A DNA stretch of 23,666 nt from a virus. Taxonomy: Duplodnaviria > Heunggongvirae > Uroviricota > Caudoviricetes. The DNA lies in the IMG/VR virus record IMGVR_UViG_2617270998_000010, one strand, 5' to 3'. The notes under the pieces were generated by a model, which did no database searches, was not told the DNA's origin, and worked only from the letters and a program-made list of their open reading frames with translations. Both the position numbers and the translations under genes were made by a program. Shown piece after piece: positions 1 through 20,762 of the stretch; positions within the stretch are counted from its first letter, which is position 1, and each line of letters begins with the position of its first letter.

Positions 1-1053
1 TTACGGGGTAATGCCAACCGCTGCCGCCACTTTGTCGCCACTTGGCAGCGTTGCCAGAGGATTGAAACGGAGCGCCGTTTCCAGATGATCCGGTGCCAGA
101 TGTGCGTAACGCATAGTCATTTTTATATCGTGGTGTCCGAGAATTTTTTGTAAGGCCAGAATGTTTCCACCCGACATCATGAAGTGCGCTGCAAACGTAT
201 GGCGCAGAACGTGTGTGAGTTGACCGCGAGGGAGCACGATAGACGTTTTTTCCATCACGGATAAAAATTGAAAATAGCAGTCTGTGAAGAAATTGAACCC
301 ATCGAGCGCCATGATCTCTTCGTAAAGCTCTTTACTGATAGGGATGCTTCTGTTTTTCTTCCCCTTCGTTCTGACAAAGGTAATTCGGTATTTGGTCACC
401 TGTGAGCGGGTAAGATTTACGGCTTCACGCCAGCGTGCGCCTGTGCTTAAGCATATCTTAACTACCAGTGCCAGAATTGGGTCCTGACGTTTGCAATCAG
501 CCAGCAATTCAACAATCTGCTCATGGGTAAGCCATGCCATCTCTTTTTCTGCGATGGTGAATTTTCGCATGTTCTCCAGTGGGTTCGGATACGACCATTC
601 GCCCAGACGGGATAGTTCGCTAAAAACACTACTTAGATAGCTTTGCTCCAGGTTAATGGTGACCGGGCTTGCTCCTTTCTTCCATTTCTCGCTGAAGTAG
701 ATCTCGCCTGTCAGGCGTTTATCTCGATAGTGAGCAAACATTTTTGAGGTGAGATCAGTTGCAAGGGGATTTCCCAAGGCGTCAACCATCAACAGCAGCT
801 TGTTGTAGACATGCTGTCCGGCAGTAAGAGATTTGCCATGTAATTTGAACCATAGCTCAACCATATCTTTCAGTGTCCGACGATCCACTGATTCGCCCAG
901 CCAGGGTTTTGCTTCTATTTCCCCCATGGTGTATCGCTCGAAGGCCAGTGCTTCGCCTTTGGTGGCGAATTGTTTACGCACACGGCGTCCGCTACGTCCG
1001 GCGGGGTAACATTCGCAAAGCCATTTTCCTGTGGTGAGTTTTCGTACTGCCAT
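1..1053 (-). CDS. int: Phage tyrosine integrase (P2/186 Int family)
   Basis: ORF 1..1068 (-). C-terminal tyrosine-recombinase motifs (HVLRHTFAAH ... GHHDIKMTMRYAHL). Stop codon is at bases 1-3, so the gene is complete. Start placed at the second ATG (1053, MAVRK...) which has a GAGGG Shine-Dalgarno; the upstream ATG at 1068 is the alternative. Confidence 0.9.
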   Translation of the reverse strand: MAVRKLTTGKWLCECYPAGRSGRRVRKQFATKGEALAFERYTMGEIEAKPWLGESVDRRTLKDMVELWFKLHGKSLTAGQHVYNKLLLMVDALGNPLATDLTSKMFAHYRDKRLTGEIYFSEKWKKGASPVTINLEQSYLSSVFSELSRLGEWSYPNPLENMRKFTIAEKEMAWLTHEQIVELLADCKRQDPILALVVKICLSTGARWREAVNLTRSQVTKYRITFVRTKGKKNRSIPISKELYEEIMALDGFNFFTDCYFQFLSVMEKTSIVLPRGQLTHVLRHTFAAHFMMSGGNILALQKILGHHDIKMTMRYAHLAPDHLETALRFNPLATLPSGDKVAAAVGITP

Positions 1054-1060
1054 AAAAAAT

Positions 1061-1078
1061 GCCCTCATATCAGAGGGC
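1061..1078 (-). terminator. GC-rich hairpin (GCCCTC-N6-GAGGGC) followed on the minus strand by a T-run, immediately 5' of the int start; terminator-like or translational control element
   Basis: Inverted repeat read directly; on the minus strand the order is stem-loop, ATTTTTT, then the int ATG. The stem contains the int SD (GAGGG). Confidence 0.35.
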
Positions 1079-1144: not shown

Positions 1145-2089
1145 TTAATCTGTTTCTTTATCACTTCCAGTTACTTTAACTTTGTCTTTGATTGTATTCA
1201 AAAATGACGCAAAACTCGGTGGTTGCTCTGTCTGACCTGAAAATGCAGAGTCACCTGAAATATTCCAATCCTTAAAGACTTCTATTGCATCCTCTTTAGT
1301 TGCTGTAGAACCGTATATCTGCAAAAAAACTTGACCAAACATCAAAGCATGTCGACGATCTTTTCGCCTGATCGATTCATGTGTGTACTTTTTTGAGTTA
1401 CTAAGGCAGATATATGATAGCCATGAAAGAATGGCGATTCCAACTAATCCTCGCGTGAAGATATATATTAACTGAAGGTTAGTGAGATTTTTTAAATCTA
1501 AGTTCATGTATAATGTAAAAAAAGCAGATACTACTGCAAGGAAGCCAAAAAATACCCCTGCAATAGACCAGATAATAGACATCAATATAAAATGTTTGTC
1601 ATCACTACCAAGATCTGATTTAACATCGTTAACATAGGTGGGGATTTTATCATCGATTCTTTGTTGCTGTACTTGGCTACGGAGTTCCTTATTTTCACTA
1701 ATCAATGAATTAATTTGTTTTACGTTGTTTTCGATTATTGCGTTTTTTCTATTAAGATCCTGAGTATAATGCTCTAACTGTAGAGTTAATATGCTGTTTC
1801 GTTCTTCTAATTGTATTATATGTTCTACATAATTATTAGGTTCAAGTGATTTTACATTTTTTCTTTTATTGGCTTTATTTTCATTTATATTGGGTTCTTC
1901 ATCCATCGGTGGCCTAGTTATGTATTTTTCAATTAGCGCTAGGTTATTATGAGCTTCAGAAAGCTCTCCTGCTTCTATTAAGTCTTTTATATGAGAGTAG
2001 AAGTGTTTTGCTATATTTTCAGACTGTGAATCAAGAAATTCTAATAGGTGTTTTTTTATTTCGCTATCTTTATTGGTTGGTTCAGTCAT
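1145..2089 (-). CDS. Hypothetical membrane protein: N-terminal coiled-coil region, two predicted TM helices, short C-terminal domain; AT-rich insertion between cI and int
   Basis: 314-aa ORF. Hydrophobic stretches ILMSIIWSIAGVFFGFLAVVSAFFTLYM and LIYIFTRGLVGIAILSWLSYICL. Clearly lower GC than the flanking int and cI. Only 11 bp downstream of the cI stop on the same strand. No family recognised. Confidence 0.6.
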   Translation of the reverse strand: MTEPTNKDSEIKKHLLEFLDSQSENIAKHFYSHIKDLIEAGELSEAHNNLALIEKYITRPPMDEEPNINENKANKRKNVKSLEPNNYVEHIIQLEERNSILTLQLEHYTQDLNRKNAIIENNVKQINSLISENKELRSQVQQQRIDDKIPTYVNDVKSDLGSDDKHFILMSIIWSIAGVFFGFLAVVSAFFTLYMNLDLKNLTNLQLIYIFTRGLVGIAILSWLSYICLSNSKKYTHESIRRKDRRHALMFGQVFLQIYGSTATKEDAIEVFKDWNISGDSAFSGQTEQPPSFASFLNTIKDKVKVTGSDKETD

Positions 2090-2100
2090 GATGTTTCTCT

Positions 2101-3036
2101 TTATACATTTTTAGTAAAAACTCTTTTACATTTTGCCAAAACGATAATGTCAGTAAGTAAGCATTCAAAACTTGCGTTAGTGCCTACAACTTTAACCATA
2201 CCAACGGGTATGCGAGTCAAATCTTTGATACTTATTTTCCCTTCAATATTCACAAGCCACTTGCCATCAGTAACTTCATTAAATTTTGATTCTACAATAT
2301 ATATTTCCTCATCAATGAATACTGCTAAAGGTTGCAGAAAGGTTCCTTCTAACAACTTAGAGTCAAAAGTCAAGAAGGTTTCTTGAGCAAGAGATCCATC
2401 AATTATTTTATGATATGGGATAGTGATAGTATCGTTTCGAGGCTTTTCAAACATTGCCCCGTTACCAGTGGTTAGCCATGTTAATGAAGCACCGGTTTCC
2501 AGTGAGCATTGAATAATCCAGTCAGCAGGAAAGGTATCTCTCATGTAACGATTGGCTAATGTACTTTTTGATACACCAATATGATCAGCTAAAGCTTGTC
2601 TTGTCTTAAATCCATAAGCCAAAACGATTCGCTCTATTGCTGCTTTTCCACCTTGGTTAATAGTAAAAGAGTTCTCATTTTGGATGTCTTGTTCTCTATT
2701 GAGATGTTGATGCTTGCTGTCACAATTGTTGTGACTTTTTTCTGCATTATTTGTAATGCTTCCCTTCTCGGTATCAGTGCCAAATGCCAACCACTCGACC
2801 GGCACTCCAGTCTCCATGCTACAGATAACAACCCAATCAGCAGGGAAAGTGTCACGGGCATACCTGTTCGCCATTGTACTTTGCGATATACCTAGGTGAT
2901 TACAGAATGCTTGTCGGGAAGAAAAACCATAGGCTTTCAGTATCCGATCTATAACCGATTGCCCTCCGCGATTCTGCATGATTAAGGATTTCTTTTTTTC
3001 GTCCACATGGCGAAATGTGATTTCATGTGTTGACAT
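2101..3036 (-). CDS. cI: Phage 186 CI-type immunity repressor with a tandemly duplicated N-terminal DNA-binding domain
   Basis: 311-aa ORF. Two internal repeats (about res 23-88 and 128-195) each resemble the 186 CI N-terminal HTH domain (...AYGF..RQA...HLGISQST.ANRY.RDTFPADW...ETG....WL.TG). Divergent from the Apl/CII operon, as in 186. Confidence 0.8.
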   Translation of the reverse strand: MSTHEITFRHVDEKKKSLIMQNRGGQSVIDRILKAYGFSSRQAFCNHLGISQSTMANRYARDTFPADWVVICSMETGVPVEWLAFGTDTEKGSITNNAEKSHNNCDSKHQHLNREQDIQNENSFTINQGGKAAIERIVLAYGFKTRQALADHIGVSKSTLANRYMRDTFPADWIIQCSLETGASLTWLTTGNGAMFEKPRNDTITIPYHKIIDGSLAQETFLTFDSKLLEGTFLQPLAVFIDEEIYIVESKFNEVTDGKWLVNIEGKISIKDLTRIPVGMVKVVGTNASFECLLTDIIVLAKCKRVFTKNV

Positions 3037-4929: not shown

Positions 4930-5783
4930 GCACCATCCTGAAATGGGCGGGTAATAAAACCGCCATTATGTCCGAACTGAAAAAACACCTTCCTGCTGGC
5001 CCGCGACTGGTTGAACCTTTCGCGGGTTCCTGTGCTGTGATGATGGCGACGGATTACCCCAGCTATCTGGTTGCTGATATTAATCCTGATTTAATCAACC
5101 TCTATAAAAAGATTGCCGCTGATTGCGAATCATTTATATCTCGTGCCAGAGTCTTATTTGAGGAAGCAAACAGGGAGGTGGCTTATTACAACATAAGGCA
5201 GGAGTTTAATTACTCATCTGAAATTACTGATTTCATGAAAGCAGTATATTTCCTGTATCTCAATCGTCACGGTTACCGTGGGTTATGTCGTTATAACAAG
5301 AGCGGACATTTCAACATTCCCTACGGGAATTATAAAAATCCGTATTTCCCTGAAAAAGAAATTCGCGCATTTGCAGAAAAAGCCCAGCGGGCAACGTTTA
5401 TCTGCGCCAGCTTTGATGAAACGCTGGCGATGTTGAAGGCGGGGGATGTGGTGTATTGCGATCCGCCTTATGACGGTACGTTTTCCGGCTATCACACTGA
5501 TGGTTTCACTGAAGATGACCAGTATCACCTGGCATCCGTTCTTGAACATCGATCATCTGAAGGACATCCGGTCATTGTTTCTAACAGTGACACATCCCTG
5601 ATTCGTTCGCTGTATCGCAATTTTACTCACCACTATATCAAGGTAAAACGCAGCATCGGTGTGGCAGCTGGCGAGTGTAAATCAGCAACAGAAATCATCG
5701 CTGTTTCCGGGCCGCGCTGCTGGGTGGGATTTGATCCTTCGCGTGGCGTGGATAGTTCTGCCGTGTACGGAGTGCGTGCATGA
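4926..5783 (+). CDS. dam: DNA adenine methyltransferase (Dam-like, orphan N6-MTase)
   Basis: Start ATG 4926 inside ORF 4866..5783. N-terminus [20 protein letters not shown]...LVEPFAGS (AdoMet motif) and DPPY motif ([10 protein letters not shown]), similar to E. coli Dam. Confidence 0.85.
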
Positions 5784-8194
5784 GCCATGCTGATATGAAC
5801 AACTGCAGCGGCTTTAACGAGGTCGCAGCAGCATTCTCATGGAGCAGCCCGAAAAAGGCCATTAACCCTTATCTGGACCCGGCGGAAGTTGCGCCGGTTT
5901 CTGCGCTTTCAAACCTGATCACTCTGTACGCTGCCGATAACGAGCAGGAACAGCTGCGCCGTGAGGCGCTGAGTGATCAGGTCTGGGAGCGTTATTTCTT
6001 TAATGAATCCCGTGATCCTGTCCAGCGCGAAATCGAGCAGGATAAGCTCATTAGTCGGGCAAAGCTGGCGCATGAGCAGCAGCGTTTTAATCCGGATATG
6101 GTCATTCTGGCGGACGTCAACGCCCAGCCTTCCCATATCAGCAAGCCGCTGATGCAACGTATTGAATACTTCAGCAGCCTGGGCAGGCCAAAGGCTTATT
6201 CCCGCTATTTGCGTGAGACGATTAAGCCATGTCTGGAACGACTGGAGCATGTACGCGAGAGTCAGCTATCCACTTCTTTTCGCTTTATGGCAAGCCATGA
6301 AGGGCTGGACGGCCTGCTGATCCTGCCTGAAATGAGTCAGGATCAGGTGAAGCGCCTGTCTACCCTTGTTGCCGCGCATATGAGCATGTGCCTTGATGCA
6401 GCTTGTGGTGATTTGTATGCCACCGATGACGTTAAGCCAGAAGAAATCCGCAAGACATGGGAAAAGGTGGCAGCGGAAACCCTGCGTCTGGATGTAATCC
6501 CTCCTGCGTTTGAGCAACTCCGTCGGAAAAGAAACCGCCGTAAACCCGTGCCCTATGAACTCATTCCGGGTTCGCTGGCGCGTATGTTGTGCGCCGACTG
6601 GTGGTATCGGAAATTATGGAAGATGCGTTGCGAATGGCGGGAAGAGCAGTTGCGTGCTGTCTGCCTGGTCAGCAAAAAAGCATCTCCCTATGTCAGCTAT
6701 GAAGCCGTGATGCATAAACGTGAGCAGCGCCGTAAGTCGCTGGAGTTTTTCCGTTCTCATGAACTGGTGAACGAAGACGGCGACACGCTGGACATGGAGG
6801 ATGTGGTAAACGCCAGCAGCAGCAACCCGGCGCATCGCCGCAATGAGATGATGGCCTGTGTTAAAGGTCTGGAGCTTATCGCGGAAATGCGCGGTGACTG
6901 CGCCGTTTTCTACACCATCACCTGTCCGTCACGTTTCCATTCCACGCTCAATAACGGCAGACCAAACCCGACCTGGACAAACGCGACGGTAAGACAAAGC
7001 AGCGATTATCTGGTCGGCATGTTTGCTGCATTTCGTAAGGCGATGCACAAAGCCGGGTTGCGCTGGTATGGCGTGCGGGTGGCTGAGCCGCATCATGACG
7101 GCACAGTTCACTGGCACCTGTTGTGTTTCATGCGCAAAAAAGACCGCCGTGCCATCACTGCATTACTGCGTAAGTTTGCCATCCGTGAAGACCGCGAGGA
7201 GCTGGGCAATAACACTGGGCCGCGCTTTAAGTCTGAGTTGATTAACCCGCGCAAAGGAACGCCAACAAGCTACATCGCGAAATACATCAGTAAGAACATT
7301 GACGGGCGTGGTCTGGCTGGCGAGATCAGCAAGGAAACGGGGAAATCCCTGCGTGATAATGCTGAATACGTTAATGCCTGGGCGTCTCTGCATCGTGTTC
7401 AGCAATTCCGCTTCTTTGGCATTCCGGGGCGTCAGGCTTACCGTGAACTGCGATTGCTGGCTGGTCAGGCGGCAAGGCAACAGGGGGACAAAAAAGCAGG
7501 TGCGCCGGTACTGGATAACCCACGCCTTGATGCCATCCTGGCTGCTGCTGATGCTGGTTGTTTTGCCACCTACATCATGAAGCAGGGCGGCGTACTGGTT
7601 CCCCGCAAATATCACCTCATCAGAACCGCTTATGAAATCAACGAAGAGCCGACCGCCTATGGCGATCACGGCATTCGTATTTATGGCATCTGGTCACCTA
7701 TTGCAGAGGGCAAGATCTGCACTCATGCCGTGAAGTGGAAAATGGTTCGTAAGGCCGTTGATGTTCAGGAGGCGGCAGCCGACCAGGGCGCTTGCGCCCC
7801 TTGGACTCGTGGCAATAACTGTCCCCTTGCTGAAAATTTGAACCAACAGGAGAAAGATAAATCAGCTGATGGGGACACCAGAACGGATATTACCCGCATG
7901 GATGACAAGGAGTTGCACGATTTTCTGCACAGTATGAACAAAAAAGAGCGCCGGGAACTGGCTGCAAGGTTACGCCTGGTGAAACCGAAACGGCGTAGAG
8001 ACTACAAACAGCGAATTACAGACCATCAACGACAGCAGCTCGTCTATGAACTGAAGTCCAGAGGATTTGATGGCAGCGAGAAAGAGGTCGATTTACTCCT
8101 TCGCGGTGGCAGTATTCCGTCAGGAGCAGGCCTGCGTATCTTCTATCGGAACCAGCGTCTGAAGGAAGATGATAAGTGGCGGAACCTGTATTAA
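5780..8194 (+). CDS. A: Replication initiation endonuclease gpA (rolling-circle, HUH family)
   Basis: 804-aa ORF; HUH-like motif ([10 protein letters not shown]) and tyrosine motif ([14 protein letters not shown]); position and size match P2 gpA / 186 A; ATGA overlap with dam. Confidence 0.9.
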
Positions 8195-8286
8195 TTACGC
8201 GGGTTAACAATTCGTGCTCTTAATAATACCAGGCATATCAGGCCGATGAACGTAAAAAAACGTTTTACATCAGTAAGATTATTATA

Positions 8287-8306
8287 TACTGTAAATATAA
8301 ACAGTG
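8287..8306. promoter_or_regulatory. LexA operator (SOS box) TACTGTAAATATAAACAGTG upstream of the tum/DinI-like operon
   Basis: CTGT-N8-ACAG with 17/20 identity to the consensus TACTGTATATATATACAGTA, about 40 bp upstream of the 8347 start; TATACT -10-like hexamer overlaps it. Confidence 0.6.
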
Positions 8307-8346
8307 GTTATGTATACAGTATTGCTTTGGTGTTATAGGAGGAAAG

Positions 8347-8535
8347 ATGCAGGACTATTTTTTGGAGTCTTTGAAGCTCCAGCGCATTGATTTTTTTCTT
8401 AAGCTTGTAGCGGCTAGCGAGTGTAGTGATGAAGAGAAGGGGCTGGCTTTGCAGTGGGTTTCTGAATTGACTGATGAACTCATGGCAAAAATCAGAACCC
8501 ACGAATACAACCGCTCAATGGATGTCATCAGTTGA
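8347..8535 (+). CDS. Small SOS-regulated protein, possible Tum-like antirepressor
   Basis: 62-aa ORF with strong AGGAGG SD immediately downstream of the LexA box; equivalent position to 186 tum. Functional assignment is by context. Confidence 0.45.
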   Translation: MQDYFLESLKLQRIDFFLKLVAASECSDEEKGLALQWVSELTDELMAKIRTHEYNRSMDVIS

Positions 8536-8545
8536 GGTGACTTTT

Positions 8546-8779
8546 ATGCGCATTGAAATAATGATCGATAAAGAGCAGAAGATTAGCCAGTCTATCCTGG
8601 ACGCCCTTGAATCCGAGCTTTACCGCAATCTGCGCCCCCTGTATCCCAAAACGGTAATTCGTATCCGCAAAGGTAGCACTAACGGTGTGGAACTGACCGG
8701 ACTGCAACTGGACGAAGAAAGGAAGCAAGTGATGAAAATTATGCAGAAGGTGTGGGAAGACGACAGCTGGCTGCATTAA
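8546..8779 (+). CDS. DinI-family protein
   Basis: Start ATG 8546 (GAGGTG SD) inside ORF 8474..8779. MRIEIMIDK...DALESEL...ERKQVMKIMQKVWEDDSW parallels E. coli DinI (MRIEVTIAK...DALAGEL...KQRISEILQETWESADDW). Confidence 0.7.
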   Translation: MRIEIMIDKEQKISQSILDALESELYRNLRPLYPKTVIRIRKGSTNGVELTGLQLDEERKQVMKIMQKVWEDDSWLH

Positions 8780-9049
8780 GAAACGTTGCTGGCGTCTGAA
8801 CTTGCTTCTGGCGTCAGCAAGGTTGAACAACGAGCTATGCGAGGCGTTAGTGTCAATTTGTTACCTTAACCACTATATATGCCAGGAAATTAACAGTTCT
8901 TAAGAAACCGCTTGCATGATCGAGCGCATTGAACTTAAGTTTAAGTAACGAAATCAACAGATGATATTGTTGTCTAAATTTTAAAGATAATCTGTTGAGG
9001 TTGTAGGCGTCGAAGTGTAGACTTCCGCGCCATGTGAAAAGGGGGAGTT

Positions 9050-9265
9050 ATGTCAAGCATCGCCGCATTTAGCCTGGGTAACCCAGTTGAACGTCTGGCA
9101 AGGGTTCTTAAAGAGAACCAGGACAAACTCAATCTTAGTAAAGATGGTTTTGTGTCCGTAGACTTGTCTAACAAAAGAGCAATGGATGCCATCAAGGCAC
9201 AGATGGATAAGCTTGAAGGCATCAAAACGAGCACTGTAAAAGAGAAAACTAATAGAACCAGATAA
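9050..9265 (+). CDS. Hypothetical small soluble protein (71 aa), first gene of a coupled accessory pair
   Basis: ATG 9050 preceded by AAGGGGGAG; predicted helical and charged; stop overlaps the next start (TAATG at 9263-9267). Confidence 0.5.
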   Translation: MSSIAAFSLGNPVERLARVLKENQDKLNLSKDGFVSVDLSNKRAMDAIKAQMDKLEGIKTSTVKEKTNRTR

Positions 9266-10107
9266 TGGCAACATTACTTTTAGCAGTGATTTTGGTTAGT
9301 GGTTTTATTTATGTAAACCTATCACTTTCAACAAGATACCGATATAAGCGTTCCAACGGCTGGGACGCTTATTTTTTTGTGGCTGCCTGGGGTATCGTTT
9401 TTTTTCTCCTTGGCGGTTTTTTCACCTTTATTTTGAACGTCAGCGGAGGGTTTCGTTTGCTGGCTAATGCCTTGAATCTAACACCTGACAGTTTTAATGG
9501 CATGTTGTCTTCATCGAAAGACAAACTTCAAAGAATAAATGAAATTAAACAGATAGCATGGGTTATGATTTCAATTGTCCTCGCTGCGATTTCAGGTTTT
9601 GGAAATAAGTTACGCACATCACGTGGAGATCGTCGCTGGGATGCCTTAGCTAAAGCTGTGGGTAATAACGCTTTCGAATCATTACTTATGGAAGCGTCCG
9701 CAAGACAGTTTCCGATCATAGCAACTCTGTCGTCTCGCAAAATCTATGTTGGCCTTGTTACTTGTCCGGCGTTAGAAAACGGGCTTTCAGAGCACCTTGA
9801 ACTTCTCCCGATGTTAAGCGGATATCGGGATAAAGATGATCTAACGATTAGTATCACGACTAACTATCACCAACATTATCTTGATAGTGGTGTGATAAGT
9901 GGAATGTCTCGGCTTAATATCGAAGATTTCCGTGTGCTCATACCAAAAGATGAGGTTGAAACAATTTCGTTTTTTGATACTGAGACATATAACAAATTTA
10001 AAGAAAATGAAGCCAGGGATAGAAAGAACTGTCGAAAGATTGGTAGTAAAAGTGCATCTTCGCGCAGCAAGCGTGCAGCAGATGCTGAGTCAAATGATCG
10101 TGCATGA
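9265..10107 (+). CDS. Hypothetical membrane protein (three predicted N-terminal TM helices plus about 160-aa soluble C-terminal domain with basic tail)
   Basis: 280-aa ORF. Hydrophobic segments at res 3-20, 35-57 and 95-112. AT-rich. Sits between the tum module and cos, the old/tin position of P2. No family recognised. Confidence 0.6.
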   Translation: MATLLLAVILVSGFIYVNLSLSTRYRYKRSNGWDAYFFVAAWGIVFFLLGGFFTFILNVSGGFRLLANALNLTPDSFNGMLSSSKDKLQRINEIKQIAWVMISIVLAAISGFGNKLRTSRGDRRWDALAKAVGNNAFESLLMEASARQFPIIATLSSRKIYVGLVTCPALENGLSEHLELLPMLSGYRDKDDLTISITTNYHQHYLDSGVISGMSRLNIEDFRVLIPKDEVETISFFDTETYNKFKENEARDRKNCRKIGSKSASSRSKRAADAESNDRA

Positions 10108-10154
10108 CTATGCTGCATGAGATCGCATGATCGTTTGAGGATCATTTTTGCTAA

Positions 10155-10180
10155 GGCCCGCCAGAACTGGCGGGCTTTTG
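10155..10180 (+). terminator. Rho-independent terminator (GCCCGCC-N6-GGCGGGC followed by TTTT)
   Basis: Perfect 7-bp GC stem and T-tract read directly, 48 bp after the stop of the 9265..10107 gene. Confidence 0.7.
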
Positions 10181-10224
10181 CGTAGATCATGCAACTGCAT
10201 GAAAACCACTACATAAAGCGGGCA

Positions 10225-10243
10225 GGCGTGGCGGGGATACGAG
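10225..10243 (+). other. Probable cos site (19-nt cohesive end) GGCGTGGCGGGGATACGAG
   Basis: Close to the P2/186 cohesive-end sequence as I recall it (GGCG[A/T]GGCGGGGAAAGCA.), with GCGCGCT conserved just downstream; correct orientation relative to the portal gene. Confidence 0.5.
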
Positions 10244-10353
10244 CGCGCGCTCATGGTTGAATTAATGAAATTATGGTGTTAAATAGGCTAGCTTTTTAAG
10301 TCGTGAATATTCAATTTTTCAACTCATTTTTTTCATAGGGAGGAGTAATTGAC

Positions 10354-11052
10354 ATGGTTATGTTAGTGGATGACTGTCCACGATGTGGATCACAAAAAAT
10401 AGCGTTTGATGTTAATGGGCTGAATTGCACTAGGGTTTACAATGCATTGGGCGGGGGTAAAACATACGAGTACGAGGTCTATTGTGTTTGCCGAGAGTGT
10501 CATAAAACGACAATGTTTCTTTGCAGACCTTTAACGAAAAATAAAACTTTAGATGGCTATAATTGGAAAAGTGGAATATTCGGCTTAAAGGAAGTTGCAG
10601 AGGTTGTTAGGCCTATATCACCAGCAGACTTAGCAGTAGAGGAGCCACCAGAGTTCTTACCTGAGCATATCAATAGTGCATATGAGGAAGGGGCGAAATG
10701 TTTGGCTATAGGTTGTTATAATGCAGCAGCAACCATGTTTAGGCTTTGCCTTGATTATGCCACAAAAGGACTTCTTCCTGATGGGGAGCAAGGGCCTGCG
10801 CAAAAAATAAGGAGAAGCCTAGGGTTAAGAATGGAGTGGTTATTTGATAATCATCTACTGCCTGAAGCTTTAAGGGAACTAGCTGAATGCGTTAAAGATG
10901 ACGGAAATGATGGAGCGCATGAAGGTATTTTGGATAAAGCTGCTGCTGAGGATCTTGAAGATTTTACCTATCTTTTTTTAGAACGGCTTTACACTGAACC
11001 TCAACGCCTTATCGAAGCCAAGACAAGGCGTGAACAAAGAAGAAACAAATAA
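10354..11052 (+). CDS. Hypothetical protein: N-terminal Zn-ribbon (CPRCG...CRECH) plus C-terminal DUF4145/HEPN-like domain; accessory gene between cos and Q
   Basis: 232-aa ORF, ATG 10354 with GGGAGGAG SD. Two CxxC pairs in the first 50 residues. C-terminal alpha-helical region ending ...LAECVKDDGNDGAHEG resembles the GN-x-AH signature I associate with DUF4145. AT-rich; convergent with Q (stops 8 bp apart). Confidence 0.6.
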   Translation: MVMLVDDCPRCGSQKIAFDVNGLNCTRVYNALGGGKTYEYEVYCVCRECHKTTMFLCRPLTKNKTLDGYNWKSGIFGLKEVAEVVRPISPADLAVEEPPEFLPEHINSAYEEGAKCLAIGCYNAAATMFRLCLDYATKGLLPDGEQGPAQKIRRSLGLRMEWLFDNHLLPEALRELAECVKDDGNDGAHEGILDKAAAEDLEDFTYLFLERLYTEPQRLIEAKTRREQRRNK

Positions 11053-11060
11053 GTTCGGAA

Positions 11061-12098
11061 TTATTCTTCTGAAAGAATATAGGGCGTAAATTTAATCACT
11101 TCTTCGCCCAGCCAGTCGTTCAGCTCTTGTAGCCTTTTTTGCAAGGGCGTTAATTCATTACGTACAAATACGCGACTGGCTTTCTCCACATCCCCAAACC
11201 CCCCGACATTATTAGGCATTATCCCCATCATTTGTGGCGGCACACGATGCGCCGCCATCATGTCGTCCCGGCTCACGTTCTTGATATTCAGGAACTCATC
11301 CTTCGCCGCCACTTCTGACAACGGGATAATCTGAAGCCCGTCCTTTTTACCGTTAGGCGAGTACATAAACAGGTTACGGAAGTTACCAGGACCTTTGGCG
11401 CTTTTCATCGCATTGCGGAGGTTGTTCACATCCTCCTGGTTCTGCGCAGCATCGGTCATGTACATGATGAAGCCTGCATGACTGCCGTTAATGTAATACT
11501 TGCGGCGGAACAGCGTGGCGGACTCGTTGAGCAGAGCTGACGGAATGGCAGAAAGATAACCGGGCAGGCCGTAGATCTCCTGGTTGATGTCCGGTTCCAT
11601 CAGATGAAAAATGTTGCCTTTCGTGAACTGATACGACTGCGTAGTCATACCGTATTGCACAAACCAGTAGGTATCCAGGTCTAACCCGCGTCGGGTGTAT
11701 TTTGCCAGTGCAGGCTCAAGGGCGATAACTTCACCGAAGCGGTTCGTGCGTTTCTCCAGGTAGGCGTTACCAAAAACCAGATAGTCCTGTACAAAACGCG
11801 AAAAAGCCTGCTGGCTGAGCAGCGGGTGAGGGATGTAGGTGCTGGTCAGAATGTTGCACTTCACTGCAATCGGTGAGCTGTGATGCACGGCGGCGCGGAA
11901 GGTTCGCGCCAGTCCGTCGAAACTCACAGGCGGCTCATACCAACGATCCATCTGTACGCATTCCACATAGTCCAGCAGTTCGCGGCGGTCCAGAACAGGA
12001 ACGGGATCACCGAAGCTGAATGCTTCGGCTGAAGTCTGGCTTTTATGCTGGATCTGTTTCGTCGACGCAGCGCGGTTTTTCTTACTCTTTCCCATCAA
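11061..12098 (-). CDS. Q: Portal protein gpQ
   Basis: 345-aa ORF, size and position as P2 Q; overlaps the P stop (ATGA-type overlap at 12095-12098). Confidence 0.9.
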   Translation of the reverse strand: MMGKSKKNRAASTKQIQHKSQTSAEAFSFGDPVPVLDRRELLDYVECVQMDRWYEPPVSFDGLARTFRAAVHHSSPIAVKCNILTSTYIPHPLLSQQAFSRFVQDYLVFGNAYLEKRTNRFGEVIALEPALAKYTRRGLDLDTYWFVQYGMTTQSYQFTKGNIFHLMEPDINQEIYGLPGYLSAIPSALLNESATLFRRKYYINGSHAGFIMYMTDAAQNQEDVNNLRNAMKSAKGPGNFRNLFMYSPNGKKDGLQIIPLSEVAAKDEFLNIKNVSRDDMMAAHRVPPQMMGIMPNNVGGFGDVEKASRVFVRNELTPLQKRLQELNDWLGEEVIKFTPYILSEE

Positions 12099-18996: not shown

Positions 18997-19435
18997 ACTG
19001 CAGAAGGTGGACGACTGGCTGAGTGCATTATTGGCGAATCTGGAGCCAGCCGCAAGAAGCCGCATGATGCGCCAGCTGGCGCAGGAACTGCGCCGGACAC
19101 AGCAGCAGAACATCAGGATGCAGCGCAATCCAGATGGCAGCAGTTATGAGCCGCGCAGGGTAACAGCACGCAGCAAAAAGGGGCGCATCAAACGTCAGAT
19201 GTTTGCGAAGCTGCGCACCACAAAATACCTGAAAACTGCCGCCAGCGCCGACTCTGCCAGCGTGCAGTTTGAAGGCAAGGTGCAGCGCATTGCCCGCGTT
19301 CATCACTACGGCCTGCGTGATCGCGTCAGTCGCAAAGGACCTGAGGTCCGTTATGCAGAGCGTCGTTTGTTAGGGGGGAATGATGAAGTAGAAACTCGAA
19401 CTAGGAATATCCTAGTTCGATGGCTTATAAGTTAG
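18989..19435 (+). CDS. S: Tail completion protein gpS (3' end lies in AT-rich inserted DNA)
   Basis: 148 aa, size as P2 S (150 aa); the last roughly 13 codons fall in the AT-rich segment that carries the downstream accessory gene. Confidence 0.8.
   Translation: MAELQKVDDWLSALLANLEPAARSRMMRQLAQELRRTQQQNIRMQRNPDGSSYEPRRVTARSKKGRIKRQMFAKLRTTKYLKTAASADSASVQFEGKVQRIARVHHYGLRDRVSRKGPEVRYAERRLLGGNDEVETRTRNILVRWLIS
19397..19419. terminator. Perfect palindrome CGAACTAGG-AATAT-CCTAGTTCG at the convergent junction of S and the accessory gene; candidate bidirectional terminator
   Basis: 9-bp stems and 5-nt loop read directly; lies just 3' of the minus-strand gene stop (19432) and inside the last codons of S. 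Confidence 0.4.
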
Positions 19436-20091
19436 CTCTTATTTTTGGATGAGCGTAAAAGACTCATTAATTCTATGATGATTTTTTCTTGAAGTAGATT
19501 GGGGGTTTTTTCGAAACTTACATTGTGTTCACGTAATGTTTGAATGATTGTGCCGAACTCATCAGTATCACCTTGCGATAGTAAGAATGCAATTCTCTGG
19601 TTGTCATAGTCGTTGCTCATTTGCATGTTGTATTTAATGAACACAATAAATAACCGAAGTATATATCCAGTGAATAATATTCCAGATAAGATTAGTAAAT
19701 AAGGTGCCGCGGTTTCAATGGCTTTTTCAAAGGTGCTTTTAGTATTTAGGTATGTTGAATTAATACCTGATTCATTTTTTTTGATTATCGGGTTTGAATT
19801 TTTTGAAGCGTTGAGGTTTTCTGATGCTTGTGCAAGTTTATCAGTTAACTGTTGCATGATGGTGAACTTTTCGAAAGCAGATTCTATTTGCTGAGAGCTC
19901 AATCTAAGTGAGGCAAGTGCATTGTCACGCTTATTACTTTCTGCTTTATAAAAAATATAAGTTGCAGGAATGCAGAGTACAGCAGTTAATAAAATATATA
20001 AAAATAAGAGCGTAGTAATTTTAGAGCGGCTAGCTCGTTTTTCCATTGTTTTCAATATTTCGTTATATTTTTGTTCGTCAAGAACCATCAT
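19432..20091 (-). CDS. Hypothetical membrane protein (two predicted TM helices flanking a roughly 80-aa polar/coiled segment); AT-rich insertion between S and V
   Basis: ORF 19432..20193 (-). Preferred start is the ATG-ATG at 20091/20088 (AAGGA about 12 nt upstream); the ORF-track start is a GTG at 20193 that would overlap V. TM-like segments ITTLLFLYILLTAVLCIPATYIFY and AAPYLLILSGILFTGYILRLFIVFI. No family recognised. Confidence 0.55.
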   Translation of the reverse strand: MMVLDEQKYNEILKTMEKRASRSKITTLLFLYILLTAVLCIPATYIFYKAESNKRDNALASLRLSSQQIESAFEKFTIMQQLTDKLAQASENLNASKNSNPIIKKNESGINSTYLNTKSTFEKAIETAAPYLLILSGILFTGYILRLFIVFIKYNMQMSNDYDNQRIAFLLSQGDTDEFGTIIQTLREHNVSFEKTPNLLQEKIIIELMSLLRSSKNKS

Positions 20092-20118
20092 CTTAAATTT
20101 TATCCTTGGAAGATACAT

Positions 20119-20136
20119 TGTGCCATTTATAGCACA
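20119..20136. promoter_or_regulatory. TGT-N12-ACA dyad within a perfect palindrome (ATTGTGC-N9-GCACAAT), candidate Ogr/B site of late promoter PV
   Basis: Read directly; about 50 bp upstream of the V start, with a GATAAT -10-like hexamer at 20162-20167; lies in the divergent gap between V and the accessory gene. Confidence 0.45.
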
Positions 20137-20183
20137 ATGTACCTGATCTACCGTAGAAGTCGATAATTCATCATCCTTAGTAG

Positions 20184-20762
20184 ATGAACGCACAACTAAC
20201 AGAAATCATGCGCCTTATCACCAACCTGATCCGCACAGGGGTAGTCACCGAAGTGGACCGGGAAAACTGGCTTTGCCGGGTGAAAACGGGCGAGCTTGAA
20301 ACCAACTGGATCAGCTGGCTGACGCTGCGTGCCGGGAATGCCCGCACATGGTGGCGACCATCGGAAGGTGAGCAGGTGGTGGTGCTGAGTCTGGGAGGCA
20401 ATCTGGAAACTGCCTTTGCGTTGCCCGCAGTCTATTCGAATCAGTTCGCGCCACCTTCGACGTCGGCGGACGCCTGCGTGACAGAACATCCTGACGGTGG
20501 CTGGTTTGAATACGAACCCGCCACCGGGCGCTGGTATGTCAGGGGCATCAAATCCATGGTCATTGAGGCTGCCGACAACATCACCCTGAAAACCAGTGAG
20601 TTTGTGCTGGAGGCTGACCGCACGCGTATTAACAGCGAAGTAGTGATCAATGGTGGCGTTACCCAGGGCGGCGGTGCAATGAGTTCTAACGGAATTGTGG
20701 TTGATGCACATCAACATACTGGCGTCCTGAAAGGCGGCGATACAACCGGAGGCCCGGTATGA
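20184..20762 (+). CDS. V: Baseplate spike protein gpV
   Basis: 192 aa; IRTGVVTEVD...CRVKTGELETNWISWLTLRAGNARTWWRPSEGEQ parallels recalled P2 gpV (IRTGIIVETD...CRVQTGGMCTDWLQWLTHRAGRSRTWWAPSVGEQ). Confidence 0.85.
   Translation: MNAQLTEIMRLITNLIRTGVVTEVDRENWLCRVKTGELETNWISWLTLRAGNARTWWRPSEGEQVVVLSLGGNLETAFALPAVYSNQFAPPSTSADACVTEHPDGGWFEYEPATGRWYVRGIKSMVIEAADNITLKTSEFVLEADRTRINSEVVINGGVTQGGGAMSSNGIVVDAHQHTGVLKGGDTTGGPV

Follow-up and report, generated by a model that had tools for sequence, protein, structure and literature searches.

A mobile two-gene cassette in the gpA-cos hotspot of a P2-type prophage pairs a small protein with a membrane protein predicted to carry an Sm-like domain: a candidate exclusion module

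Genes and boundaries of the cassette

The DNA considered here is the 23,666-nucleotide virus record IMGVR_UViG_2617270998_000010 (the window, taken at its full length), which is a 186/P2-type prophage of Escherichia coli, and our subject is a cassette of two uncharacterised genes lying between its DinI/tum-like gene and cos. The open reading frames (ORFs) of the cassette and the features that frame them are as follows.

8854-9049, plus strand: cassette-specific AT-rich upstream region, a 196-bp leader that starts at the left junction
9050-9265, plus strand: ORF1, a soluble, basic protein of 71 amino acids, phrog_9843 (ORF call, PHROG profile)
9265-10107, plus strand: ORF2, an inner-membrane protein of 280 amino acids, phrog_3630, predicted to have three transmembrane (TM) helices and, after them, a cytoplasmic Sm-like domain (ORF call, PHROG profile, structural model)
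10155-10180, plus strand: intrinsic terminator hairpin and U-run, in conserved backbone outside the cassette
about 10213-10250, strand not assigned: P2/P4-type cos region (…AAAGCGGGCAGGCGTGGCGGGGATACGAGCGCGCGC), aligned with 82% identity to the P4-type cos region of Table S2 in Rousset et al. (2022)

An earlier annotation of this DNA (the initial annotation) had given the same gene coordinates, which hold up in a check of the ORFs and in the substitution rates described below. It had also placed the pair between the tum module and cos, in the variable old/tin locus of P2 phages (the A-cos hotspot), and both the position of cos and an empty site in phage 500465-1 bear this out. Because that phage runs directly from its DinI gene into the terminator and cos, alignment of the empty site delimits an insert of ~1.25 kb, at about 8854-10099, with junctions at about 8853/8854 on the left and 10099/10100 on the right. 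The right junction falls inside the end of ORF2 (10096-10107), where the last two codons and the stop are conserved backbone that is kept in cassette-less phages. In strain JSMCR1 the locus is 99.4% identical, and both cassette genes are labelled 'hypothetical protein' there.

Two further statements of the initial annotation stand in part. The cassette is AT-rich, with a guanine-plus-cytosine (GC) content of 0.38-0.43 as against 0.53-0.60 in the backbone, but the AT-richness spans the whole 8000-11200 stretch, which is wider than the cassette. Likewise, the terminator said to close the cassette is a genuine structure (a GC-rich stem of 11 bp and then UUUU; -26.9 kcal/mol, z = -4.7), but it belongs to the P2-type backbone common to phages with other cargo or none. 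The cassette has the features of a moron in its presence or absence among related phages, its differing base composition (GC about 0.41 as against about 0.55) and its site between conserved genes. As for expression signals, the terminator in use is that of the backbone, and a consensus promoter scan, which is weak evidence either way, found no sigma-70 consensus on the plus strand of 8854-9049. A further terminator-like hairpin, with a 12-bp stem followed by T7, lies at 9344-9372 (plus strand) in the 5' part of ORF2, where conserved codons encode KRSNGWDAYFF; this may be a coincidence, or the hairpin may serve as an internal attenuator.

ORF1 and its coupling to ORF2

The TAA stop codon of ORF1 (9263-9265) overlaps the ATG of ORF2 (9265-9267) as TAATG. 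Because ORF1 is preceded by a strong Shine-Dalgarno sequence, AGGGGGAG, and ORF2 starts in the ORF1 stop with no ribosome-binding site at all, translational coupling from ORF1 to ORF2, as initially proposed, is plausible. When the two genes were compared with their copies in Klebsiella phage ST15-OXA48phi14.1 (80% identity), the ratio of nonsynonymous to synonymous substitution rates (dN/dS) was 0.22 for ORF1 and 0.05 for ORF2, values that reflect purifying selection on each; both are, therefore, real genes.

ORF1 contains no hydrophobic segment, in agreement with its earlier description as a soluble protein. It matches PHROG 9843 over residues 1-66 (profile positions 1-66 of 66; E = 1.4e-36). 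Its conserved core in the window, ...LNLSKDGFVSVDLSN..A.DAIKAQMDKL, reads as helix, beta-hairpin and helix, and the consensus core of the family is ...LNLSKDGxVSLNLxNxxVxxAIxxQIxKL. A structural model likewise predicts a helix, a short hairpin and a helix, at low confidence, and no structural neighbour of this model was found. The family is named 'multidrug ABC transporter ATPase' in NCBI and UniRef and 'YobD membrane protein' in one source. The first name is a propagated misannotation, as the protein has only 71 amino acids and no Walker motifs, and the second can be rejected for a soluble protein of this length.

ORF2, a three-TM protein with a predicted Sm-like domain

The two parts of ORF2 map to the window as follows.

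9265-9603, plus strand: residues 1-113, comprising TM1, a lysine/arginine (K/R)-rich cytoplasmic loop, TM2, a predicted periplasmic loop (residues 59-94) and TM3
9706-10005, plus strand: residues 148-247, the beta core of the predicted Sm/LSm/Hfq-like domain

Hydrophobic segments at residues 1-23, 34-63 and 94-112 correspond to the three N-terminal TM helices that the initial annotation had recognised ahead of a soluble C-terminal domain. Because loop 1 (STRYRYKRSNGWD) and the linker after TM3 (NKLRTSRGDRRWD) are both K/R-rich, the topology is predicted to be N-out/C-in, which would put residues ~114-280 in the cytoplasm. The full-length protein matches PHROG 3630 over residues 1-270 (profile positions 1-273 of 274; E = 1.5e-98).

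Structure prediction, which the initial annotation had recommended, gave the cytoplasmic domain an Sm-like fold. In the model, an N-terminal helix (residues 136-147) precedes a five-stranded, strongly bent beta-barrel, the combination that characterises the Sm/LSm/Hfq fold, and the core of the barrel carries the motifs LSSRKIYVG, LLPMLSGYRDKD, TTNYxxHY and FFDTETY. The modelled domain can thus be assigned to Sm/LSm at the level of the fold; the assignment fails at the level of sequence, where Pfam profiles gave no LSM or Hfq match that would identify Sm1 and Sm2 motifs in ORF2. Conservation covers TM1, loop 1, TM2 and the barrel, and it is in the barrel that the invariant or near-invariant residues cluster: K159, Y161, G163, P182, S185, G186, Y187, R188, D189, K190, D191, Y201 and F237. 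Residues 59-94, the predicted periplasmic loop, are hypervariable, as is the basic C-terminal tail.

The pair is inherited as a unit

Pairing was analysed in 82 loci, made up of 80 from species-representative genomes (ORF2 identity 23-89%) and two annotated records. In 54 of them, an iterative hidden Markov model (HMM) built from ORF1 detected a member of the ORF1 family as the nearest upstream ORF, on the strand of ORF2, and the HMM found no match elsewhere in the ~0.8 Mb of six-frame ORFs of these loci. Nearly all of the other 28, from hosts such as Pseudomonas, Alteromonas, Xanthomonas and Acidobacteria, have an upstream ORF of 42-97 amino acids (mostly 60-70) with a '(V/I)VGRGxLxVD + helix' motif, here called the GRG type. 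Alignment of the two types with hhalign was in register (P = 8.5e-4, probability 24%), which is suggestive only of a relationship between them. Repeatedly among the loci, a stop codon and the next start overlap by 1 or 4 nt, and the two-gene pair is the unit.

Database searches and extent of the family

Scans of ORF1 and ORF2 against Pfam and NCBIfam returned nothing above threshold, and PADLOC-DB v2.0.0, which includes the Rousset, Vassallo, Millman, Gao and PDC candidates, gave no match to ORF1 and only one at chance level (E = 0.1) to ORF2; the same database matched none of 76 diverse relatives at E<=0.001. No housekeeping family appeared in the Pfam and NCBIfam scans of the pair or in a Pfam scan of the 76 relatives. 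A profile search of PDB sequences gave nothing significant (YaeO only, at E = 0.23), a Foldseek search of BFVD gave no match at E <= 0.001, and neither the accessions of the pair nor its motifs were found in the supplements of DefensePredictor and Vassallo 2022. Rfam recognised no RNA family over the whole window, so that a hidden retron, small RNA or toxin-antitoxin RNA is not supported.

These profile searches, which the initial annotation had proposed, thus found homology to neither a known defence family nor a housekeeping one. Its description of the system as undescribed needs qualifying, however: the pair does escape PADLOC, Pfam, NCBIfam and PDB, but it is already listed as PHROG 9843 and 3630 and has entries in Tables S5A and S5B of Rousset et al. 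(2022).

The family is also far larger than a word-seeded search, which yielded 57 ORF2 clusters only, would suggest. An exhaustive profile search for ORF2 among 1.84 billion representatives returned 2,884 at E <= 1e-3, including 2,012 at E <= 1e-10, and nearly all of the matches are 240-300 amino acids long and align end to end. They range over Gamma- and Betaproteobacteria and as far as Acidobacteria. ORF2 itself does not match Pfam DUF6338 (PF19865) even at E <= 1. However, five of the 76 diverse superfamily members reach this family (best E = 2.8e-7; the other 71 have no match at E <= 0.01), and because of these five we consider the ORF2 superfamily to be remotely connected to DUF6338, a family that likewise has no known function, short of membership. 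As judged from sequence, the pair's only memberships are PHROG 3630 and 9843, both uncharacterised families, together with this remote tie.

Distribution and mobility

The hotspot between gpA and cos of P2-like phages, i.e. the old/tin locus, houses many validated defence systems (Rousset et al., 2022). It carries the pair in phages of Escherichia, Klebsiella, Serratia, Citrobacter, Photorhabdus and Edwardsiella and in Salmonella SEN5. Other sites are also occupied. In Shewanella the pair sits at the edge of a P2-like prophage, adjoining its repressor; it adjoins the repressor in Pseudoalteromonas phage C5a as well, occupies the int-attP interval of Cronobacter phage phiES15, and is also found beside an integrase at a dus gene. 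Elsewhere, the pair is embedded in tail operons on the same strand as its neighbours: between K and I-J in an Enterobacter lambda-like operon, between L and K in a Haemophilus lambda-like operon, and, in an Aeromonas siphophage, with a tail gene on one side and the tape-measure gene on the other. Finally, small chromosomal islets with the pair occur in Pseudomonas, Psychrobacter and Neisseria. In the Pseudomonas fluorescens group, the pair is only 64-80% identical between species, as against 90-96% for the flanking core TetR gene, and both the spacing to that gene and the content downstream vary.

Among the 5,426 complete genomes of E. coli, about 52 have the cassette, and the neighbouring modules combined with it include DUF4145, SEFIR, SieB and PIN_12. 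The exact pair, WP_000094764 and WP_021556032, appears at the gpA-gpQ locus in Table S5A of Rousset et al. (2022), and Table S5B includes diverged paralogues, curated there as system #43 (93 loci) and system #57 (75 loci); none of the three is among the systems that these authors report testing. The three subfamilies (the pair, #43 and #57) of the E. coli P2 hotspot are 21-34% identical to one another, systems #43 and #57 being about 21-34% identical to the Klebsiella-phage orthologue of ORF2, and both have an N-terminal TM region and SRKxYVG / SGYRDKD motifs in common with ORF2. System #57 has a GRG-type small protein, which gives no significant match to the ORF1 HMM, and #43 is listed as a single gene.

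Several copies can coexist in one genome. Photorhabdus akhurstii (L010, L025, L043) and P. namnaonensis (L009, L046) each have 2-3 divergent copies per genome, with 54%, 31% and 27% identity to ORF2, a divergence that suggests non-redundant specificities. Taken together, the cassette is a mobile, dispensable, rapidly diversifying and strictly paired accessory module (moron) of temperate phages and islets.

A candidate exclusion or abortive-infection module

Because a mobile, dispensable and diversifying strict pair recurs at the sites of prophage exclusion and defence genes, we favour the view that the cassette is a prophage exclusion or abortive-infection module, in which a membrane-anchored Sm-like oligomer would act as the effector and the small protein as its partner. 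We put the probability of this reading at roughly 0.45. The most probable role of such a module would be to guard the lysogen, or the cell after induction, from other phages, whether through abortive infection or through a block to DNA entry at the inner membrane. The earlier idea of a small partner with a membrane effector remains a reasonable one.

A possible mechanism can be outlined from the predicted architecture. ORF2 would insert in the inner membrane with its N terminus out and its C terminus in. Sm and Hfq domains normally form rings, and the cytoplasmic domains of ORF2 may do the same; such a ring would gather 3 x n TM helices, in outline like MscS. Within the barrel, residues K159, Y161, G163, S185-G186-Y187-R188-D189-K190 and Y201 could form a pocket for a nucleotide, single-stranded nucleic acid or peptide. 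Co-translated ORF1 might bind the Sm-like domain as a keeper or adaptor, and a phage-derived cue would then displace or engage it, upon which the TM bundle would open and collapse the membrane potential, or would obstruct the incoming genome. The hypervariable periplasmic loop and C-terminal tail are candidate determinants of specificity. A bolder version of this proposal, which we regard as unlikely although worth stating, is a new, widespread class of prophage and islet immunity in which a membrane-anchored Sm-like ring would sense a nucleic-acid or nucleotide cue (for example an incoming genome end or phage RNA) at the inner membrane itself, with the partner of 60-80 amino acids as gatekeeper, and would respond with a pore or a block to DNA entry.

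Relation to known systems

In its proposed way of working, the pair is closest to RexAB-type pairs, Cap15-type effectors and inner-membrane exclusion morons, and it belongs to none of them, all homology tests having failed. Its direct relatives, PHROG 3630/9843 and the Rousset entries, are catalogue entries of 'unknown function' that come with no domain assignment. Lambda RexA/RexB and several pairs reported by Rousset et al. (hydrolase + 3TM, RexA + 4TM, 2TM-1TM-TIR) are similar in being prophage two-gene units of a soluble and a polytopic inner-membrane protein, found in P2/P4 hotspots. However, there is no homology to the cassette, whose soluble partner is a protein of 71 amino acids with no enzymatic domain and whose membrane protein bears the sensor-like fold.

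Effectors of the Cap15 type, from CBASS (anti-phage systems that signal through cyclic oligonucleotides), also place N-terminal TM helices before a small C-terminal beta-barrel with possible ligand binding. In Cap15, the ligand-bound barrel drives oligomerisation and membrane disruption. The cassette differs in having no linked cyclase or other signal-producing enzyme, no sequence similarity to Cap15 and a barrel that is predicted to be Sm-like. Among Sm/LSm/Hfq and the related WYL sensor domains, ORF2 is set apart by the lack of a significant LSM or Hfq sequence match and by the fusion of its domain to three TM helices; to our knowledge, canonical Sm proteins are never fused to TM helices.

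The exclusion moron gp15 of phage HK97 lies between the tail chaperone and tape-measure genes (PMC3594210), and the Aeromonas copy of the pair occupies a site of the same type. Like the cassette, HK97 gp15 and P22 SieA are prophage morons for inner-membrane proteins, but they are single genes of unrelated sequence, with neither an Sm-like domain nor a partner, and gp15 is small.

Alternative explanations

The pair might instead be an addiction module in the style of toxin-antitoxin (TA) systems, with ORF2 as a membrane-damaging toxin and ORF1 as its labile antitoxin, which would stabilise the prophage or islet and have little or no role in exclusion. Gene organisation fits this well: as in TA modules, a small upstream gene is coupled to a larger one, overlaps its start (TAATG/ATGA) and is strictly co-inherited with it. 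The presence of the pair on many kinds of mobile element and in small chromosomal islets is equally compatible, and TA modules, for example system #52, are common in the P2 hotspot. The proteins themselves fit poorly. No antitoxin family matches ORF1, in which a DNA-binding fold cannot be recognised either, and known membrane toxins are short peptides, quite unlike a 280-amino-acid protein with three TM helices and a conserved, folded cytoplasmic domain. In addition, #43 is a single-gene system in Rousset Table S5B, although a short ORF may have gone unannotated there. We consider the TA explanation improbable.

A role in the phage life cycle after SOS induction is suggested by the DNA upstream of the cassette, which contains the following features.

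8287-8306, plus strand: exact AT-rich LexA (SOS) box TACTGTAAATATAAACAGTG, ~40 bp upstream of the operon of the 62-amino-acid ORF and the DinI/tum-like gene
8347-8535, plus strand: 62-amino-acid ORF, phrog_698, backbone 5' of the cassette
8546-8779 (annotated), plus strand: DinI-like/tum-type gene, backbone 5' of the cassette

The LexA box, like the Sm-like fold and the size and spread of the family, did not figure in the initial annotation. In phage 186, the p95-tum unit is under LexA control. From the box as far as 10155-10180, the only terminator-like structure is a weak hairpin of 6 bp at 8524-8541, so that transcription from an SOS promoter could, by analogy, read through into the cassette. 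The pair would then act in the induced cell, perhaps on membrane state, lysis timing or the blocking of re-infection, and would provide no standing immunity. The lack of a sigma-70 consensus in its leader and its same-strand location within late tail operons elsewhere are in line with such a role. Yet the pair is dispensable, close relatives having an empty site or other cargo; copies adjoin int/attP and repressor genes, the usual place of genes expressed in lysogeny; and islets without any phage also carry it. We regard an SOS-expressed accessory as rather improbable.

Of the explanations set out here, a membrane function that benefits the host (lysogenic conversion), whether as a small MscS-like channel, a transport regulator or an envelope-stress factor, strikes us as the least probable. 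MscS combines three TM helices with an Sm-like beta domain, and ORF2 echoes this order in its predicted N-out/C-in set of three TM helices ahead of an Sm-like beta domain; however, ORF2 showed neither a match to the MS_channel profile nor a structural match to the channel. In Pseudomonas, Psychrobacter and Neisseria, some members have metabolic or regulatory genes as neighbours, and a DUF6338 protein has been reported as widely conserved and present in biosynthetic clusters (PMC10433244), both of which would suit a host function. The remaining probability belongs to something else. A holin or lysis gene can be ruled out for a pair that is dispensable and away from the lysis cassette, as can a tail assembly chaperone (suggested by the Aeromonas position) for a polytopic membrane protein that is a clear homologue of the P2-hotspot gene.

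Implications

As prophage membrane-effector modules go, the cassette has an uncharacterised architecture, and defence finders miss its family. The cos-proximal hotspots of P2 and P4 have been fertile ground for finding new immune systems, and the pair and its two diverged paralogues stand there as catalogue entries; these are the E. coli representatives of a large, uniformly built family. If the favoured exclusion or defence reading is right, the pair would add a new architecture, namely an Sm-like cytoplasmic domain on a three-TM anchor with an obligatory mini-protein, and would give a first functional handle on relatives of DUF6338. The bolder sensing model, if true, would make ORF2 the first case of a membrane effector with a fused sensor of Sm/Hfq fold, and the superfamily tied to DUF6338, with its about 2,900 clusters, would gain a function. 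The predicted Sm-like domain also points to a testable ligand, a nucleic acid or nucleotide, and the decisive experiments are cheap because the cassette is only 1.25 kb. Even if the pair should turn out to be an SOS life-cycle factor or a TA module, the result would settle a recurrent unknown in prophage annotation and correct the name 'multidrug ABC transporter ATPase'.

Other features of the prophage

The remaining backbone and cargo genes of the window include the following.

1-1068, minus strand: int
2101-3036, minus strand: CI repressor
5780-8194: replication gene A
10354-11052, plus strand: DUF4145 gene (232 amino acids, phrog_1305), between cos and the portal gene Q
11061-12098, minus strand: portal gene Q
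also encoded in the window: cII and Dam-type methylase genes
also present in the window: terminase, scaffold and capsid genes

Since cos (about 10213-10250) divides it from the cassette, the DUF4145 gene forms a hotspot module of its own, on the side of cos towards Q. Its PADLOC match to PD-T7-4 is weak (E = 1.2e-6). In Klebsiella phage ST15-OXA48phi14.1, this gene is swapped for one with a SEFIR domain. The Klebsiella phage locus (L002, 5195-6834) runs from the cassette to a 69-amino-acid ORF and a 477-amino-acid SEFIR-domain protein and then to the portal gene, and the SEFIR gene region is a candidate TIR-like/SEFIR defence module.

Two other regions of the window stand out by composition. 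Between int and the CI repressor lies an AT-rich ORF of 314 amino acids (1145-2089, minus strand; GC 0.30-0.36) with no family match (DUF996 at E = 0.004), and a second exact LexA-type box, CTGTATATAAAAACAG, is located at 1088-1103, between int and this ORF; the 1088-2089 region is probably another accessory or moron slot. On the opposite strand within the late/tail region, an ORF of 253 amino acids (19432-20193, minus strand) has a sub-threshold match to DUF3112 and no other family match, and with a GC content of ~0.33 as against ~0.56 around it, it looks like another inserted moron.

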